This document shows, piece after piece, positions 32,657 to 39,950 of a stretch of DNA of 64,000 bases; within the stretch, counting starts at the first letter, position 1; every line of letters starts with the position of its first letter. The stretch is from an uncultured Desulfobacter sp. GTDB lineage: Bacteria; Desulfobacterota; Desulfobacteria; Desulfobacterales; Desulfobacteraceae. Under the pieces are notes generated by a model. That model was not told the origin of the DNA and did no database searches. It worked only from the letters and a program-made list of their open reading frames with translations. Where the stretch lies: the NCBI GenBank assembly GCA_963665095.1, contig OY762069.1, forward strand, positions 2,304,001 through 2,368,000. The letters are read 5' to 3'. The position numbers and the translations under genes are program-made.

Positions 32657-33886
32657 ATGTCATTGTTTCTAATTACAGCTGTCTCAACCCTTTTTTTGAT
32701 TTACGGCTTTTCCGGGTACCGTATCATCCGGCCTTTGCCGGTGAGTACCAAATGCAAAACCGGTCTGTGGATGTTACTTGCTTCCTGCCTGGCAGCCCTG
32801 ATATTTACCGTCATAGCCCGGCATAGATTTCCCGGTCACTGGGCGTCCCCTTTGCTTCCCTGGATTGCATATACCTGTTTTGGTTTTATGACCCTTATCT
32901 TCCCCGGAATTCTGCTGAAAGACATTGGATTCGGTGCTTATCAGCTTGTCCACCTGCTTGTATCCAGATACCCCTTCTCTGCAAAAAAAGCTGTCCAAAC
33001 GCGCCCCCCAATGGACCCGTCCCGCCGCAGTTTCCTGACCAATGCCGGAAATGCGGCTCTGGTAGGTGCGACAGTGACGTTAACCGGATACGGCATTGGC
33101 CGGGCAGTAAGGGGACCGGATGTCGTCAAGGTGGACATCCCCATATCGAACTTGCCAAAACCGTTCCACGAATTTAAAATCCTACAGATTTCAGATCTGC
33201 ACATCAGCATGACGCTAAAAGAAAAATATGTCCGGACCGTTGTGGACCGGATCTGCCGGGAACAGGCTGACATGATTGTATTCACCGGAGATCTTGCAGA
33301 CGGCCATGCCAAAGATCTGGGCAGGGAGGCCCGGCCCCTTGCAGACCTGGATGCTGAATTCGGCAAATTTTTTGTAACGGGAAACCACGACTATTACTCC
33401 GGGATCGATCAATGGCTGGCCCGGATTAAACATGTGGGCTTCACCCCTCTGATCAACCAGCATTGCCTCATTGAAAAAGGAAGGGCCCGGATAGTGCTGG
33501 CCGGCATAACCGACTACAGAGCAGACCGGATCGTGCCCGGCCATGCATCAGATCCGGGCAAAGCCCTTAAAGCGGCGCCGACATCCGTGCCAAGAATCAT
33601 GCTTGCCCATCAACCCAAAAGCATCTTCCAGACAGAGCGCCACAATGTGGATCTGATGATCTGCGGACACACCCACGGTGGGCAGTATATCCCGTGGAAC
33701 TTTATGGTGCCTGTGGACCAGCCCTATGTACACGGCCTTCACCGGCATAACAGCACACTGGTGTATGTCAACCGGGGAACCGGTTACTGGGGGCCACCCA
33801 TGAGAATCGGCGCCCCGCCCGAGATCACCATACTCAGACTAACTGATGGATCAGCATTATCTTCCGATACTCTTAAAACCGGTTGA
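32657..33886 (+). CDS. Membrane-anchored metallophosphoesterase
   Basis: SDLH, TGD, GNHD, GHTHGGQ, PPEIT; N-terminal TM helices. Confidence 0.9.
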   Translation: MSLFLITAVSTLFLIYGFSGYRIIRPLPVSTKCKTGLWMLLASCLAALIFTVIARHRFPGHWASPLLPWIAYTCFGFMTLIFPGILLKDIGFGAYQLVHLLVSRYPFSAKKAVQTRPPMDPSRRSFLTNAGNAALVGATVTLTGYGIGRAVRGPDVVKVDIPISNLPKPFHEFKILQISDLHISMTLKEKYVRTVVDRICREQADMIVFTGDLADGHAKDLGREARPLADLDAEFGKFFVTGNHDYYSGIDQWLARIKHVGFTPLINQHCLIEKGRARIVLAGITDYRADRIVPGHASDPGKALKAAPTSVPRIMLAHQPKSIFQTERHNVDLMICGHTHGGQYIPWNFMVPVDQPYVHGLHRHNSTLVYVNRGTGYWGPPMRIGAPPEITILRLTDGSALSSDTLKTG

Positions 33887-34193
33887 TCCTGAACTTCAAG
33901 CGTTTTTATCAACTTTGACATAAAAAATCATATCGGCACAGTGGCGCCAGGGAAACCGGGAGACCATAACTTAACCGGATAAGAGCAGTCAGCATGATCT
34001 AAATATAATTAGGACGCCATTGGTCTTTCAGACAGGGGTAAACGCTTGTGTACGACTAAAAACTGTTCATAAAACCGCTTAAACAAAGCCTCGTATAACT
34101 CCTCCCCGATAGTTCAAGATTGACACAGCCTTGCACTTATGGTTGATTACGGCATTTCGGTATTATTTTTTTAAATATGTACGGGAGGAATCT

Positions 34194-36158
34194 ATGCACA
34201 AACCATTTTACACTATTATTTTGGTTGTATTCAGTTTTCTGGCCACATCGGTTATGGCCGCTGACGGTAACCAGGCCGGCACCAGTGTTTATTCACTTGG
34301 TGAAGTCGTTGTTTCCGGCACCAGCGCAGACAAAGAGGTAGCGACCACCATTGAAGTAACCGCCGATGAGATAGAAGCCCAGAATGCCGGCACTCTCGAT
34401 GAAGCACTTGAGCTTCTGCCAGGCGTAGATGTCACCACAGGCGGCAACGGCACCCCCAGAATTAATATTCACGGATTCAAATCCCGGCATGTTATCCTGC
34501 TTTTAAACGGAATCCCCATGAACTCCACCTCGGACGGCCAGTTCAATCCCAGCCTGATTCCCACAGAAAACATTGCTAAAATCAAGCTGTCCTACGGCAC
34601 CCATTCTGTCCTTTACGGTCAGGGAGGGCTTGCCGGTGTGATCAACGTTATCACTAAAAAGGGCTCCAGTGACTTTGGATTTACCTATTCCGCCCAGATG
34701 GACGAACGGGGAAATCACTTAAGCAAGGCTGCCGCATCCGGAGGAGAGGATAAAATTGACTATTTCCTAAGTATAAGCAACTACGACTCCAATGGGTATG
34801 GCCTTTCGGATGACTTCACAGAAACATCTGAAGAAAACGGCGGCTTGCGGGAAAACAGTGATGAGGAACGGTTGAGTTTTTTCGGCAACATTGGTGCCAG
34901 TCTCACCGATGACCTACGCCTGGGCCTGACCCTTTCCCGCACAGACGGAGAATTCGGCGTTCCTTCCAGCGTTATTGATGACAATAACGACGTTTTTGCC
35001 CCCAACGTAAAATACGAAAGAACCGATGATCTTGAAGCATACTCAAGTCAGGTCTCACTGGATTATCATCCCCAGAGCATGTTCGGAATAAGAGCCTGGG
35101 GATTTGTAAACAGCCAGGAAGAAGAGAACAACACCTACAAGGATGAAAATTTTGATGAACTGACCGGATTTACCGAGGATGAAACAGAGATCCAGGGAGG
35201 AACGGTCCAGACAAGTCTTAATTTCGGCACCTATGGAAACACGGTATTTTCCCTTTCAGGCGAAAAGGACCAGTTTTCCTCCAAGGGCGAATCAACCAAC
35301 AGCCGGGGCAGGACAACTGAAATTGATTTAGACCATGAGCTCAAGCTGTACACTGCCGCACTGGAATACAGAATTGCCCTGTTTTCAAAACTTGATATTA
35401 CCGCAGGTGTGAATCGAACCTGGCAAAGCCGGAAGGATGGCGATGATGACAGCAAATCAGGCTACATGGTTGGCGCAGGCTATTCTCTGACAGATACAAC
35501 ACGTTTCCGGGCCTCCTATGCCAGAAAAATCCGGTTTCCCACCATTGGACAATATTATGACAGTAATAAAGGAAACAACACGCTGAATCCTGAACAGTCT
35601 GACAACTATGAGGCCGGCATCACCCAGGCTCTTGGGCTGAACCTAAACCTGGATGCGTCTGTATTTCTTTCCAATATTGAAAACTATATTGAAAAGGATG
35701 AAGGGTCCGGCATTTATGAAAATAATGACGAATACGAGTTCAAAGGAATTGATGTTGTCTTAAGCCGCCCCTTTGCCGGGAAAAAGGGGATCGTCAGCCT
35801 TGGATACTCGCTTTTAAAAACCAAAGACAAATCCCCCGGGACTCTGAAAGACGAACTGCAGTACCGTCCTGAACATAAGCTCACATTGAATACCACATAT
35901 ACCTTTGATTTTGGTTTAACAGCCCATGGGGATATTATGTATGTCAGAGATCAGTATTACTATTCCGACGATGCCACTGAAAAAGGCGAGCTTGGTAACT
36001 ACACCATCGTCAATATCAAACTGGAGCAAAAGGTGTACAAGGAGACGCTGTCCATGTTCATGGGTGTGACCAACCTGCTGGATGAGGACTATGAAGAGTC
36101 CTATGCCCTGCCCCAGGCCGGCAGGACCGGATATGCGGGATTCAAGCTCAAGTTTTAG
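34194..36158 (+). CDS. TonB-dependent outer membrane receptor
   Basis: Signal peptide, EVVVSG TonB box, plug motif SVLYG..GLAGVINVITKK, NLLDEDY, terminal Phe; GGGAGG RBS before ATG 34194. Confidence 0.93.
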   Translation: MHKPFYTIILVVFSFLATSVMAADGNQAGTSVYSLGEVVVSGTSADKEVATTIEVTADEIEAQNAGTLDEALELLPGVDVTTGGNGTPRINIHGFKSRHVILLLNGIPMNSTSDGQFNPSLIPTENIAKIKLSYGTHSVLYGQGGLAGVINVITKKGSSDFGFTYSAQMDERGNHLSKAAASGGEDKIDYFLSISNYDSNGYGLSDDFTETSEENGGLRENSDEERLSFFGNIGASLTDDLRLGLTLSRTDGEFGVPSSVIDDNNDVFAPNVKYERTDDLEAYSSQVSLDYHPQSMFGIRAWGFVNSQEEENNTYKDENFDELTGFTEDETEIQGGTVQTSLNFGTYGNTVFSLSGEKDQFSSKGESTNSRGRTTEIDLDHELKLYTAALEYRIALFSKLDITAGVNRTWQSRKDGDDDSKSGYMVGAGYSLTDTTRFRASYARKIRFPTIGQYYDSNKGNNTLNPEQSDNYEAGITQALGLNLNLDASVFLSNIENYIEKDEGSGIYENNDEYEFKGIDVVLSRPFAGKKGIVSLGYSLLKTKDKSPGTLKDELQYRPEHKLTLNTTYTFDFGLTAHGDIMYVRDQYYYSDDATEKGELGNYTIVNIKLEQKVYKETLSMFMGVTNLLDEDYEESYALPQAGRTGYAGFKLKF

Positions 36159-36206
36159 CCGATTATGCCAGTTACCTGAAACCCGGAAAGATACGGTGAT
36201 ATTGTT

Positions 36207-36950
36207 GTGAACACATTCCTGGTCTGCATTGATGACACAGACATGCCCGGTACAAAGGGAACGGGCTGGCTGGTTCAGGCGCTATGTGAGGAACTCGGAC
36301 AAAAGTACCCGGTCCAAAGTTCCGCTATCAGCCGCCACCAGCTTTACGTACACGAGGATATCCCCTATACCTCGCACAATTCGTCCATGTGTTTTGAGAT
36401 GACTCTTTCAGAAGGCAATCCAAACCCTGTGATTGCTTTCATGGCGCAGTATCTTGAAACCCGATGCGCGCCCGGGTCTGATCCCGGGCTCTGCGTGGCA
36501 GCCCTGGATGAAGCCCTGGACCGTGAGTCCCTGATTGAATTTGGTCTGAATGCAAAAAAAACGGTCTTGAGCAAAGCTGCCGCTTATGATCTTGCCAGGG
36601 AAACCGGTATTCACCTGTCCGAACACGGAGGAACCGGCCAGGGGGTTGTGGGCGCCATAGCAGGCGTGGGGCTGCGACTTTTCGGAAACGACGGCCGTTA
36701 CCGGGGCTGGTTTCACCTAGGTGCGCCCGGAGAGGTTGTAAGCGTGGCCCATCTGTGCCAATATCCATTTATCGATGAGGTGGTCACCCCCAAAGGGGAG
36801 AGCCTTCCTGAGGACACCCTGATGCAGATCGGTTCAGAGCGGACAAAAACCGTGCGCATCCATTCCAGGCAGGTGGTGGTGGCACAGCCAGTGTCGAACG
36901 GCCGCGAATCGTTTCGGACCATTACCAAGCAGGAGGCGAAACAATATTAG
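36207..36950 (+). CDS. Hypothetical protein resembling the TiaS N-terminal kinase domain / methanogenesis marker 11
   Basis: CIDDTD, IPYTSHNS, SDPGLCV, GQGVVGAIAGVG. Confidence 0.7.
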   Translation: MNTFLVCIDDTDMPGTKGTGWLVQALCEELGQKYPVQSSAISRHQLYVHEDIPYTSHNSSMCFEMTLSEGNPNPVIAFMAQYLETRCAPGSDPGLCVAALDEALDRESLIEFGLNAKKTVLSKAAAYDLARETGIHLSEHGGTGQGVVGAIAGVGLRLFGNDGRYRGWFHLGAPGEVVSVAHLCQYPFIDEVVTPKGESLPEDTLMQIGSERTKTVRIHSRQVVVAQPVSNGRESFRTITKQEAKQY

Positions 36951-36954
36951 ACAG

Positions 36955-37962
36955 ATGGACACACTCCCCAGGGTGCGGTTTTATTTTTTTGTTCTTGGAT
37001 CGCCTTTGATCCTGATTTTTGCGTCTCTTTTCCTGGGCAGGTATCCGGTCTTACCTGCCCAGGTTCTGGATATCCTCTTTTCCCCGCTCACCGGGCACAC
37101 GCCAGATACCACCCTTGCCGCCATTGTCCTTTATGTCCGTATGCCACGGCTGATTTTAGGGGCGCTTGTGGGCGGCAGTCTTGCGGTGAGCGGTGCCGCG
37201 TTCCAGGGCCTTTTCCGTAACCCCCTGGTCAGTTCGGGCATGCTTGGCGTCAGTGCCGGAGCCGGCTTTGGTGCGGCCCTCTCCCTGATCCTGTTCGACC
37301 GGTTCTTTTTTGTCTACCCCCTGTCATTCGGATTTGGACTTTTAGCAGTTTTCCTTTGTTTTCTCATCGGCCGGATGACAGCCTCCACCCAGGCCATTAC
37401 CCTGGTCCTGGGCGGCATCATTGTGGGATCTGTTTTTTCCGCTTTGATCTCCTTTATAAAATATGTGGCAGATCCCCTGGATGAGTTGCCTGCCATTGTG
37501 TTCTGGCTTATGGGCAGCCTGTCACGGGCGAATTACCCCCAGATACTGGCTGCCGGCATTCCCATGGCCCTCGGGTGTGCGGGTCTTATGGTGATTCGGT
37601 GGCGGCTCAATGTTCTGGCCATGGGGGACCGGGAAGCCAGAACCCTGGGACTCAATGTCAACGCCCACCGGATTTTCATTATCCTTTGCGCAACCCTGGC
37701 CACGGCAGGGGCGGTCTGCGTGTCAGGCGTCATTGGCTGGATCGGCCTTGTGGTACCCCACATGGGTAGAATGATCACAGGAAACGACAACAAAACCCTG
37801 ATCCCCACAGCCTTTTGCCTGGGCGCCTGTTTTCTGGTGGTTGTGGATGATATCAGCCGCCTGGTCACAGACAGTGAAATGCCTTTGGGAATTCTCACAG
37901 CACTCATTGGCGGCCCCTTTTTCATCTATCTGCTCAAAAAAACCAAAGGCAAGGAGTGGTAG
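36955..37962 (+). CDS. FecCD/BtuC-type ABC permease
   Basis: RMPR, FRNPLV, WLMGSL, GWIGLVVPH, GGPFF. Confidence 0.93.
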   Translation: MDTLPRVRFYFFVLGSPLILIFASLFLGRYPVLPAQVLDILFSPLTGHTPDTTLAAIVLYVRMPRLILGALVGGSLAVSGAAFQGLFRNPLVSSGMLGVSAGAGFGAALSLILFDRFFFVYPLSFGFGLLAVFLCFLIGRMTASTQAITLVLGGIIVGSVFSALISFIKYVADPLDELPAIVFWLMGSLSRANYPQILAAGIPMALGCAGLMVIRWRLNVLAMGDREARTLGLNVNAHRIFIILCATLATAGAVCVSGVIGWIGLVVPHMGRMITGNDNKTLIPTAFCLGACFLVVVDDISRLVTDSEMPLGILTALIGGPFFIYLLKKTKGKEW

Positions 37963-37968
37963 GCGGCC

Positions 37969-38829
37969 ATGACTTCAATTTTAACGCTTGAAAACGGCCG
38001 TTTTTCCTACCCTGGCCACCCGGTTTTTGCAGATGCAAACCTTAAGGTTGCCAAAGGAGAAGTCCTTTGTATTCTTGGTCCTAACGGATGCGGCAAGACC
38101 ACACTCATTGACTGTCTTCTGGGCATTCTTCCCCTTGACCGGGGCCGGGTGCTGGTTGAAACCAACGATATATCCCGGCTTTCCCCGAAACAGATTGCCC
38201 GGCAGATCGCCTATGTTCCCCAGAAACATGACCGCCATTTCTCCTTTTCAGTCATGGATATCCTGGTCATGGGCCGGGCCAGCCATACCTCTTTTTACCA
38301 GTCTCCGGGAAAAGATGATTTTATCCGGGCCAGAGGTATTCTTTCCGAGTTCGGACTGCTGCGCCTCAAAGACCGTGACTATACCAGTTTAAGCGGCGGC
38401 GAAACCCAGATGGTGATGATCATGCGTTCCCTGGTCCAGGACACGCCTTTGATCATCATGGACGAACCCACGGCCCATCTGGATTTCCGATATGAACTGG
38501 TGGTCCTGGAAACCATTGCCCGGCTGGTGAAGCAGGAGCAGCGGACCCTTATCATGGCCACCCACTACCCCAACCATGCTTTTTATCTGGAAAACCAGGG
38601 GATTCCGGTGCAAATGGTCTTCATGGACCAACAGCAGGTCCATCAAAGCCTTCCCCCGTCACTGGCCCTTACAGAAAAAAACATTGAAACCTTTTACCGG
38701 GTAAAGGCTTTGGTAACCAGCCATCCTGTCACGGGGACGGGTCAGGTCAGGCAGATCATTCCCCTTAAAACCCTTGATGGACGGCCTGAATCTGAGGGCC
38801 ACCCGGGCCCAAACCCCATACCGAAATAA
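37969..38829 (+). CDS. ABC transporter ATPase (FecE/BtuD-like)
   Basis: GPNGCGKTT, LSGGE, DEPTAHLD. Confidence 0.93.
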   Translation: MTSILTLENGRFSYPGHPVFADANLKVAKGEVLCILGPNGCGKTTLIDCLLGILPLDRGRVLVETNDISRLSPKQIARQIAYVPQKHDRHFSFSVMDILVMGRASHTSFYQSPGKDDFIRARGILSEFGLLRLKDRDYTSLSGGETQMVMIMRSLVQDTPLIIMDEPTAHLDFRYELVVLETIARLVKQEQRTLIMATHYPNHAFYLENQGIPVQMVFMDQQQVHQSLPPSLALTEKNIETFYRVKALVTSHPVTGTGQVRQIIPLKTLDGRPESEGHPGPNPIPK

Positions 38830-38879
38830 AAACAAAGCGTTAATAACCGAACCATTTCATGAAAACAGGAGCGTATCAG

Positions 38880-39950
38880 ATGACATCTGCAACTAAAAAA
38901 TTTTGTTTTCGACTGGCTGTCTTGTTGGGTCTTATAGGTCTGTTCCCCGTACCGGCTGCGGCAGACACTCCCGTTGAAGTGAAAGATTCCACGGGAAGAA
39001 CCCTTAAGATTGACAGGGTTCCGGAACGTATTGCCTGTCTCTATGCCTTCTGCGGCCATGTTGTGACCATGCTGGACAGAGGACCTGACATGGTGGCAAT
39101 CGTCAACGGACTTAAAAAAGATCTCCTGCTCAATCAGCTGGTTCCCACCATAGAAAAGATGACGGTGCCCTCCAAAGGGGGCATTATCAATATTGAGACA
39201 CTGATGAAAACCCGGCCGGACATTGTGTTTCTCAAACCGGAAACCGCCAACATTGATGCGGAGATAAAAAAACTGGACCGGTTTCACCTGCCCTGGTTTA
39301 CGGCCGGATACAATAACATGGCGGAGCAGATGACCATCATAGAGATGATGGGAAAGGCCATTGGGCGGTTTGAAAAGGCAAAAGCTTACACGGACTGGTA
39401 CCGGGATACCATTCGCCGGGTTAAGGAAAGGACAGACCAGATACCGAACAATGAACGGATCCGCCTGTACCATGCCGTGAACGAGGCAAACCGCACAGAT
39501 GGCCCCGGAACCCTTGAGGCGGACTGGACCCGGGCCTGCGGGGTGATCAACGTATCTGTGGGATCAGAAGCACTTAAAAAGAAGAGCAATAAATTTTTCA
39601 CCGATATTGAGCAGATCCTCTTATGGGGTCCGGAGGTGATCATTGTCAATGAAAACGGGATTGACCGGCAGATCCTGACAGATAAAAAATGGGCACCTGT
39701 CACGGCAGTAAAAAACAAAAAGGTTTACCCCATACCTGTGGGGATCTCCCGCTGGGGTCACCCGGGCGGACTTGAAACCCCTCTGGCTGTTTTATGGACG
39801 GCAAAAACCGTGTACCCCCAATACTTCACAGATATCGACCTTGAAAAAGAGGTGACGCATTTTTACAAACAGTTTTTCAATATGGATTTGAGCGGGCAGA
39901 TGGTCCAAAAAATACTTTCCGGCCAGGGTATGCGAAAACCTGCGACATAA
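38880..39950 (+). CDS. Periplasmic substrate-binding protein (metal-chelate class)
   Basis: Signal peptide, VKDSTGR, NIETLMKTRPD, IEQILLWGPE, AVKNKKVY. Confidence 0.9.
   Translation: MTSATKKFCFRLAVLLGLIGLFPVPAAADTPVEVKDSTGRTLKIDRVPERIACLYAFCGHVVTMLDRGPDMVAIVNGLKKDLLLNQLVPTIEKMTVPSKGGIINIETLMKTRPDIVFLKPETANIDAEIKKLDRFHLPWFTAGYNNMAEQMTIIEMMGKAIGRFEKAKAYTDWYRDTIRRVKERTDQIPNNERIRLYHAVNEANRTDGPGTLEADWTRACGVINVSVGSEALKKKSNKFFTDIEQILLWGPEVIIVNENGIDRQILTDKKWAPVTAVKNKKVYPIPVGISRWGHPGGLETPLAVLWTAKTVYPQYFTDIDLEKEVTHFYKQFFNMDLSGQMVQKILSGQGMRKPAT

Follow-up and report, generated by a model that had tools for sequence, protein, structure and literature searches.

The five-gene operon at positions 34194-39950 (+ strand) of the 64-kb window of an uncultured Desulfobacter sp. 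(the window is the whole stretch analysed, along which all positions are numbered) is likely a variant of molybdenum/tungsten (Mo/W) uptake with an additional enzyme, whose step is likely ATP-driven and which has not previously been described. The enzyme in question is a 247-residue protein, predicted to share the fold of the kinase domain of TiaS, the archaeal tRNA-Ile2 agmatidine synthetase, encoded between a TonB-dependent receptor and a type II importer of the ATP-binding cassette (ABC) class. Tungsten or molybdenum is very probably the cargo metal, as the genomic company of its relatives suggests, and conserved residues and the modelled fold make it probable that the 247-residue protein is an active, ATP-using enzyme. 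For the full proposal, a high-affinity W/Mo acquisition system with ATP-dependent phosphorylation of the imported cargo, we find the case for and the case against evenly balanced. In known Mo/W uptake the oxyanion is brought in and the cofactor is made; open-literature searches turned up neither an enzyme step between Mo/W import and insertion nor a TonB-dependent route for tungsten. They also found no description of the enzyme family, whose gene the TunR/TaoR regulon tables may list as hypothetical.

The operon and its genes

34194..36158, + strand: TonB-dependent outer-membrane receptor, 654 residues, with signal peptide; ATG behind GGAGG; PF07715 (Plug) and PF00593 (barrel)
36207..36950, + strand: stand-alone TiaS-kinase-fold protein, 247 residues, GTG start, no signal peptide, predicted cytoplasmic (homologues, fold model, profile)
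36207..36686, + strand: putative kinase-fold domain of this protein, about residues 1-160, with D9-D10-T11-D12, T19 (equivalent to TiaS Thr18), R43, PYTSHNS, DPGxC and HGG (TiaS profile match over 1-157; conservation in 310 homologues)
36702..36947, + strand: its C-terminal domain, residues 166-247, predicted to be small and beta-rich (model pLDDT 93.7)
36955..37962, + strand: FecCD/BtuC-type (type II) ABC permease, 335 residues (PF01032, E 4e-87; below the cut-off of all named NCBIfam models listed)
37969..38829, + strand: ABC ATPase, 286 residues (PF00005, ABC_tran)
38859..39950, + strand: class III periplasmic binding protein, nearest solved relative the molybdate/tungstate binder MolA (PF01497, Peripla_BP_2; 3psa, E 1.8e-26)

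The initial annotation had described a tight operon of these five genes, and the open reading frame (ORF) map and Pfam bear it out: all five are co-directional, with intergenic gaps of 48, 4, 6 and 29 bp. For the binding protein, a start at 38880 has a better ribosome site than 38859. The three motifs first noted in the 247-residue protein, IDDTD (residues 8-12), IPYTSHN (52-58) and GQGVVGAIAGVG (144-155), are likewise all present. The exact order receptor, enzyme, permease, ATPase and binding protein is found again in 12 of the 80 closest loci (defined below). Identity of the receptor is 47-55% to 14 receptors from the closest loci, 32-43% to those of ECF-type and other loci, and at most 28% to paralogues of its own genome; one receptor clade thus appears, by sequence, to travel with the enzyme. 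No named NCBIfam model for iron, haem or B12 is over its cut-off for any protein of the operon.

Fold and family of the 247-residue protein

The gene is real rather than a chance ORF, because it has many near-full-length homologues, is single-copy in the 6.9-Mb genome and recurs in a like gene order. Matches at E ≤ 0.001 comprise 3266 of 3701 candidates, the best 120 being 53-99% identical over nearly the full length, and the family spans thousands of proteins from Thermodesulfobacteriota, Bacillota, a spirochaete, an actinomycete and a haloarchaeon. No hydrophobic N-terminus was found in the window's protein.

Taken as a single sequence, its likeness to TiaS is weak: PF22641 (E 0.035) and TIGR03280 (E 4e-9) both stay under cut-off, and a PDB search found no match below E 0.18. 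Over positions 1-157, in turn, a 39-sequence profile matched only four PDB sequences, each of them a TiaS (E 4e-11 to 1e-10). An AlphaFold2 model built from 95 sequences (pLDDT 93.5) gave nine Foldseek matches at E ≤ 0.001, again all TiaS, and superposes on the TiaS-ATP complex 3amt with Z 19.8 and a root-mean-square deviation of 2.3 Å over 154 aligned residues, compared with Z 7.5 at most for unrelated rows. The initial annotation had left its TiaS-kinase-domain assignment to stand or fall with such a structural comparison, and the match found is clear. In the profile alignment, TiaS D8, D9, T10, D11, T18, R41 and N56 correspond to D9, D10, T11, D12, T19, R43 and N58, which are kept in 309, 309, 306, 307, 308 (as T or S), 310 and 310, respectively, of 310 distinct full-length homologues. 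The TiaS aspartates bind Mg-ATP, and its Thr18 undergoes autophosphorylation. Three further residues are specific to the family, H57 (308/310), C96 (306/310) and H140 (301/310), and their conservation suggests a new substrate or metal site.

The fold is common to the N-terminal Thr18-Cyt34 kinase domain (TCKD) of TiaS (PDB 3AMT, 3AMU, 3AU7, 4RVZ, 5XOB, 3U02; PF22641) over about 155 residues, within which the DDTD motif, the Thr18 equivalent, R41, PY, N56, PG and GxGxxGA can be aligned. However, TiaS is a four-domain enzyme of 420 residues, the profile match ends at residue 157 and takes in the kinase domain only, and NCBIfam NF040849, built for full-length TiaS, scores 20.8 bits against a cut-off of 600. 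The window's protein further differs in having an 82-residue C-terminal domain of its own, in H57, H140 and C96, in being bacterial, in the Mo/W gene company of its relatives, and in sharing its genome with TilS (over cut-off), so that no tRNA role is needed for it. On the evidence of the model, the protein is genuinely related to the TiaS kinase domain and stands alone, alike in fold and residues, and yet is not a TiaS. There is only a minimal probability that it is a tRNA- or RNA-modifying enzyme like TiaS that sits in the operon by chance: TiaS is its only clear structural relative, and the four-cysteine partner of relatives (see below) has a basic RYRRW motif, but the match stops near residue 157 of a 420-residue enzyme, TilS is already encoded, the distribution is patchy (31/401 and 23/301 genomes in the samples below) and the Mo/W context is consistent.

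Folded alone, the C-terminal domain was compared with 48,161 chains without a clear match (best Z 2.2), and Foldseek gave none at E ≤ 0.001. As to a TiaS FLD, OB or zinc-ribbon fold, no TiaS chain is among the matches listed, and residues 166-247 contain one cysteine. A beta-grasp identity was set aside, the three rows with beta-grasp-like parts lying at Z ≈ 2, too weak to use.

Methanogenesis marker protein 11 (TIGR03280) resembles the enzyme in its C-terminal half, where positions 133-282 match residues 2-156 at the E-value given above; the score is 35.9 bits against a cut-off of 255.8, and the N-terminal 130 of its 292 positions are without a match. Literature searches turned up no function for it. 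Bacteroides thetaiotaomicron has a sub-cut-off TIGR03280 match without a MoaC match, and a TCKD relative outside Mo/W metabolism may therefore exist. Paralogues with a degenerate active site (DDSR/DDSH, changed PYTSHN) occur at L194:7148-8050 and L204:7246-7992 (L numbers denote the loci analysed); the one in L194 is in tandem with an intact copy, which suggests an active/inactive pair.

Gene neighbourhoods and genome co-occurrence

Two sets of loci were compared: a closest set, the best 80 of 498 loci confirmed in genome contigs, and a phylum sample from 401 evenly sampled genomes, 31 of which matched, with 29 loci counted (the window locus and the partial G160 were left out). Flanks of up to 8 kb per side were fetched, some of them cut by contig ends. 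Mo/W markers lie in the flanks of 24/29 phylum-sample and 38/80 closest loci, and TonB, FecCD, class III or ECF importer genes in those of 10/29 and 45/80; around random positions of the window's genome, such markers are found within 8 kb in 3.5% (Mo/W) and 10.7% of cases. The markers, recognised through PDB, Pfam and NCBIfam, are a MosB homologue, MOT1, integrase-TOBE regulators, ModA-like proteins, WtpA (over cut-off), and TupA/TupB-like, ModE-like and HTH-PBP proteins. In metagenomes, a scan with one distant protein as the query found no match, and with the alignment as the query it gave 80 loci of a distant subfamily; 37 of these are at least 4 kb long, and 26 of the 37 contain a Mo/W marker.

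The commonest neighbour in the phylum sample is a MoSto-like gene, within three genes of the enzyme in 19/29 loci as compared with 10/29 for an importer. The conserved linkage to TonB/FecCD genes that was first proposed therefore holds in part: importers are enriched beside homologues (45/80 closest loci and 16/20 Bacillota loci), yet the tie is not to TonB/FecCD as such. A MoSto-like gene is present in 26/31 carrier genomes against 10/370 non-carriers, five of these ten being two-copy MosA/MosB types. An AOR-family gene is found in each of the 31 carriers and in 326/401 genomes overall; the enzyme step is therefore accessory and would help under scarcity, because most tungstoenzyme-bearing genomes are without the enzyme. 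In a FastTree phylogeny of 126 enzymes, MoSto-linked and importer-linked loci alternate across several clades.

The MoSto-like partner matches MosB of Azotobacter MoSto (MosA/MosB) at E 6e-63; in contrast to the Azotobacter pair it is mostly a single gene with a 70-residue companion, and the 247-residue enzyme itself is unrelated to MoSto. Loading of MoSto requires ATP hydrolysis, according to part of PMC6448029. The window's genome has a MoSto-like gene with the 70-residue companion and a PadR gene at C1:3270224-3271855, about 0.93 Mb from the operon; it also has modA, wtpA, MOT1 and five AOR genes. In this same arrangement (L142:6225-7829) the basic 70-residue protein is conserved and belongs to no Pfam family. 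Dozens of loci in anaerobes have the pair, although MoSto is described as without known homologues in a portion of PMC6448029 and as rare in a portion of PMC13144720. In the close relatives L012-L015 a MoSto-like gene lies downstream in the same cluster. The Desulfotignum operon (L012:11700-14600; also L013-L016) runs on with a purple-acid-phosphatase-like and a radical SAM protein, followed by the MoSto-like pair.

Riboswitches of Bacillota relatives

A Bacillota set was drawn from 301 genomes, of which 23 matched; 20 loci from 18 genomes were fetched, leaving out two loci already in other sets, one divided between contig ends and two weak, incomplete matches. In 16/20 of these loci the enzyme shares its gene run with a FecCD permease and a class III binding protein, and RF01055, the riboswitch for the molybdenum or tungsten cofactor (Moco/Tuco), heads the co-directional run in 10/20, one more preceding a nearby tupA-like gene. 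In another scan, RF01055 lies ahead of the L069 operon and, in L070, between the enzyme and an AOR gene, with none in the nine other loci. Of the 13 RF01055 matches, four alignments were viewed and all four are without P3, which marks them as tungsten-type; passages of Regulski 2008 (PMC2408646) tie the P3-less aptamer to the tungsten cofactor. No cobalamin (31 loci), thiamine pyrophosphate or flavin mononucleotide riboswitch was found among the scanned loci, and two NiCo aptamers and one cyclic di-GMP aptamer stand ahead of other genes.

Binding protein, receptor and pumps

MolA is the best of 15 PDB matches of the window's binding protein (E 1.8e-26; the next has 4e-23), and the operon shares with Haemophilus influenzae MolBC-A (HI1470-1472), a type II importer, a FecCD-type permease, an ATPase and a class III binding protein; the TonB receptor and the enzyme are additions that MolBC-A does not have. 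MolA is a type II molybdate/tungstate binder with K221 and R264 as ligands, as stated in a section of bioRxiv 10.64898/2026.10.15.759412. In a pairwise alignment (with the numbering offset inferred), MolA Y114, K221, R264 and Y301 fall on E, T218, N266 and H301, so that the window protein's ligand, or its grip on it, differs from that of MolA. Invariant R298 together with R212 may stand in for the MolA ligand residues.

The binding protein belongs to a 49-row clade with the riboswitch-led Bacillota binding proteins, being 35-70% identical to the 48 other members and at most 29% identical to 21 paralogues of its own genome, and it has in common with the riboswitch-led orthologues a pocket signature of YAFxGH, RT, NE and ISRWGHP. 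Because the binding proteins are orthologous, the Mo/W riboswitch evidence of the relatives applies to the window as well. The receptor clade (32-55% identity) is paired either with this ABC pump or, in nine loci (L042-L045, L064, L074, L078, L116, L120), with an ECF-type pump, and the enzyme is found in both settings; one receptor clade with either pump fits a single cargo that needs active entry through the outer membrane. In Gram-positive loci, Ig-like or S-layer proteins come first, and on a haloarchaeal plasmid the enzyme, a class III binding protein, FecCD and an ATPase stand in a row.

Beside the enzyme at L116:9107-9697, L064:7368-7934 and L042:8807-9433 is the gene of a membrane protein that resembles an ECF S-component, has a GH motif and belongs to no Pfam or NCBIfam family; by eye, a relative of it can be seen opposite the enzyme gene in L206, a Pimelobacter plasmid. 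The window's genome has about 19 FecCD permease matches, and in its region L143 (C1:4817000-4837000) several type II ABC systems are clustered with genes for four class III binding proteins and one TonB receptor and with a DUF364 gene.

Nature of the cargo

The metallophore, tetrapyrrole or cofactor precursor first suggested as cargo narrows to tungsten/molybdenum, given the neighbours, MolA and the riboswitches of relatives; tetrapyrroles, B12 and iron are without sign. We consider it somewhat more probable that the cargo is a complex (a chelate, or a thio- or poly-metallate) than the bare oxyanion, because a bare oxyanion would seldom call for capture of this kind and ModA and WtpA are already encoded in the genome.

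A quite unlikely alternative is cofactor salvage, in which tungsto- or molybdo-pyranopterin, or a breakdown product that has lost its phosphate, enters through the importers and is re-phosphorylated by the enzyme. TonB receptors and ECF-type or type II ABC pumps do usually carry organic cofactors. The riboswitch senses the cofactor, but also leads plain oxyanion transporters (both from parts of PMC2408646). The pterin pyrophosphokinase HPPK is among the next-best fold matches of the model (Foldseek E 0.017-0.05), but its Z of 6.3-6.8 is inside the noise band. Further, 53/54 carrier genomes keep MoaC, so that the carriers are not pterin auxotrophs and the precursor-salvage part of the initial annotation is weakened; free Moco is unstable, its uptake being known as of 2021 only in C. 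elegans in the portion of PMC9026282 that treats it; and the tight tie to a metal-storage homologue is more in keeping with metal than with pterin.

Several observations weigh against the full Mo/W proposal for the operon. No Mo/W gene lies beside it in the window, and 11/80 closest loci (1/29 in the phylum sample) have neither an importer nor a Mo/W gene in their flanks. The co-occurrence counts overstate the association, because kin are not independent. Neither K221 nor R264 of MolA is kept, and the support for the binding-protein clade (SH-aLRT 92) is that of a quick tree only. Before the GxG loop, where TiaS has an arginine, the enzyme family has Q or D. Rfam scans of the window and of the 600 bp upstream (E ≤ 10) gave no match, and RF01055 is absent from the genome. 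An 11-bp repeat found upstream of relatives (see below) scores a weak 11.5 at the window, compared with 132 genome sites over 13, and does not occur at the genome's mod/wtp genes. To these can be added the partner genes missing from some carriers, which are described in the next section.

We allow a small probability that the cargo in this lineage is a chelate of iron, cobalt/B12 or nickel and that the Mo/W link belongs to the relatives only. The FecCD/BtuC-like family annotations, the loss of the MolA ligand residues and the want of any Mo/W regulatory element at the window locus would agree with this; all named Fe and B12 models under cut-off, the pocket motifs shared with riboswitch-led orthologues, the 31 scanned loci without a cobalamin riboswitch and the downstream MoSto-like gene of L012-L015 would not.

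Partner proteins and the target of the enzyme

A four-cysteine (4-Cys) domain (C...DEE...CxNCRYRRW...C), without a Pfam family, is fused to the enzyme in 5/7 longer homologues; many Bacillota loci and some of those in the phylum have it as a gene of its own or as a fusion (e.g., L185:6757-6966, L069:7209-7415, L201, L202). In the proteins P0123-P0127, enzyme and 4-Cys domain are fused to GlpA-like flavin adenine dinucleotide oxidoreductases (four) or to a Pyr_redox/DUF1667 protein (one). The 4-Cys partner was not found in the window's genome at E ≤ 1, and among Bacillota carriers a MoSto-like gene is present in just 4/22, an AOR gene in 21/22; hence no single partner is obligatory, and what is constant across relatives is W/Mo supply.

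These partners bear on what the enzyme modifies. It is unlikely, though deserving of serious thought, that the protein works in trafficking or control, autophosphorylating T19 or modifying a partner (the MoSto-like cage, the 70-residue companion or the 4-Cys domain) so as to direct loading, unloading or the sorting of W versus Mo, while leaving the imported complex untouched. T/S19 is kept in nearly all homologues (308/310), and TiaS is reportedly, going by the title of Terasaka 2011, a dual protein and RNA kinase. The enzyme's place within three genes of the MoSto-like gene, the 4-Cys fusions and the degenerate paralogues in L194 and L204 speak for the same view; the scarcity of MoSto-like genes in Bacillota carriers, the missing 4-Cys partner in the window's genome and five single-copy MoSto-like genomes without an enzyme-profile match speak against it. 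By a narrow preference, we take the enzyme to act on the imported species and not on a protein.

Proposed mechanism

In the phosphorylation of imported cargo that we propose, a complex of tungsten (or molybdenum) would be captured by the outer-membrane receptor and moved inward by the MolBC-A-type ABC pump; the TiaS-fold protein, predicted to be cytoplasmic, would then phosphorylate the cargo with Mg-ATP, by which the metal would be released or made active for cofactor synthesis or insertion, or for storage. We hold as tentative, and on balance doubtful, a bolder form in which a whole W-loaded molecule (a tungstophore, or the W cofactor as shed by neighbouring cells) is imported by anaerobes through the dedicated TonB receptor and either of two unrelated inner-membrane pumps and is then made usable through phosphorylation by a repurposed TiaS kinase whose C-terminal domain matches no known fold. 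If true, bacteria would have here a tungstophore or Mo/W-cofactor salvage route without precedent, and the TiaS kinase fold its first reaction on a small molecule. The more general proposal, if true, would give that fold a second chemistry and provide a lead for methanogenesis marker 11. A family tied to importers, Mo/W genes and tungsten-type riboswitches offers a way into the question of how anaerobes gather tungsten when it is scarce or bound to sulfide, and with one binding protein and one 27-kDa enzyme the proposal is directly testable.

Upstream region

34120..34167, + strand: promoter-like stretch, TTGACA at 34120, then TATGGTTGATT; overlaps the weak 11-bp periodic repeat match (by eye; motif score 11.5)

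The promoter layout is alike, by eye, in the relatives L003, L004 and L008; a consensus scan did not report the stretch. A shared palindromic operator was sought by palindrome count and by palindromic expectation-maximisation on 95-97 upstream regions, which found none. An 11-bp periodic GTT/GTC repeat motif is above shuffles in 50/95 upstream regions, the same set on which it was trained; on account of its weak score here and its absence at the mod/wtp genes, it was not used as support for the window locus. The motif may bear a likeness to TaoR sites. In about half of the phylum loci (L010, L020, L028, L034, L036, L053, L132 and others), 11-bp direct repeats with GTT/GTC/GTA cores lie just upstream of TTGACA, and from their sequence they are a candidate operator of a Mo/W regulator. 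Directly upstream of the operon on the same strand, a YkuE-like metallophosphoesterase gene (32657-33886) ends 307 bp before the receptor and is not conserved beside the operon in relatives.

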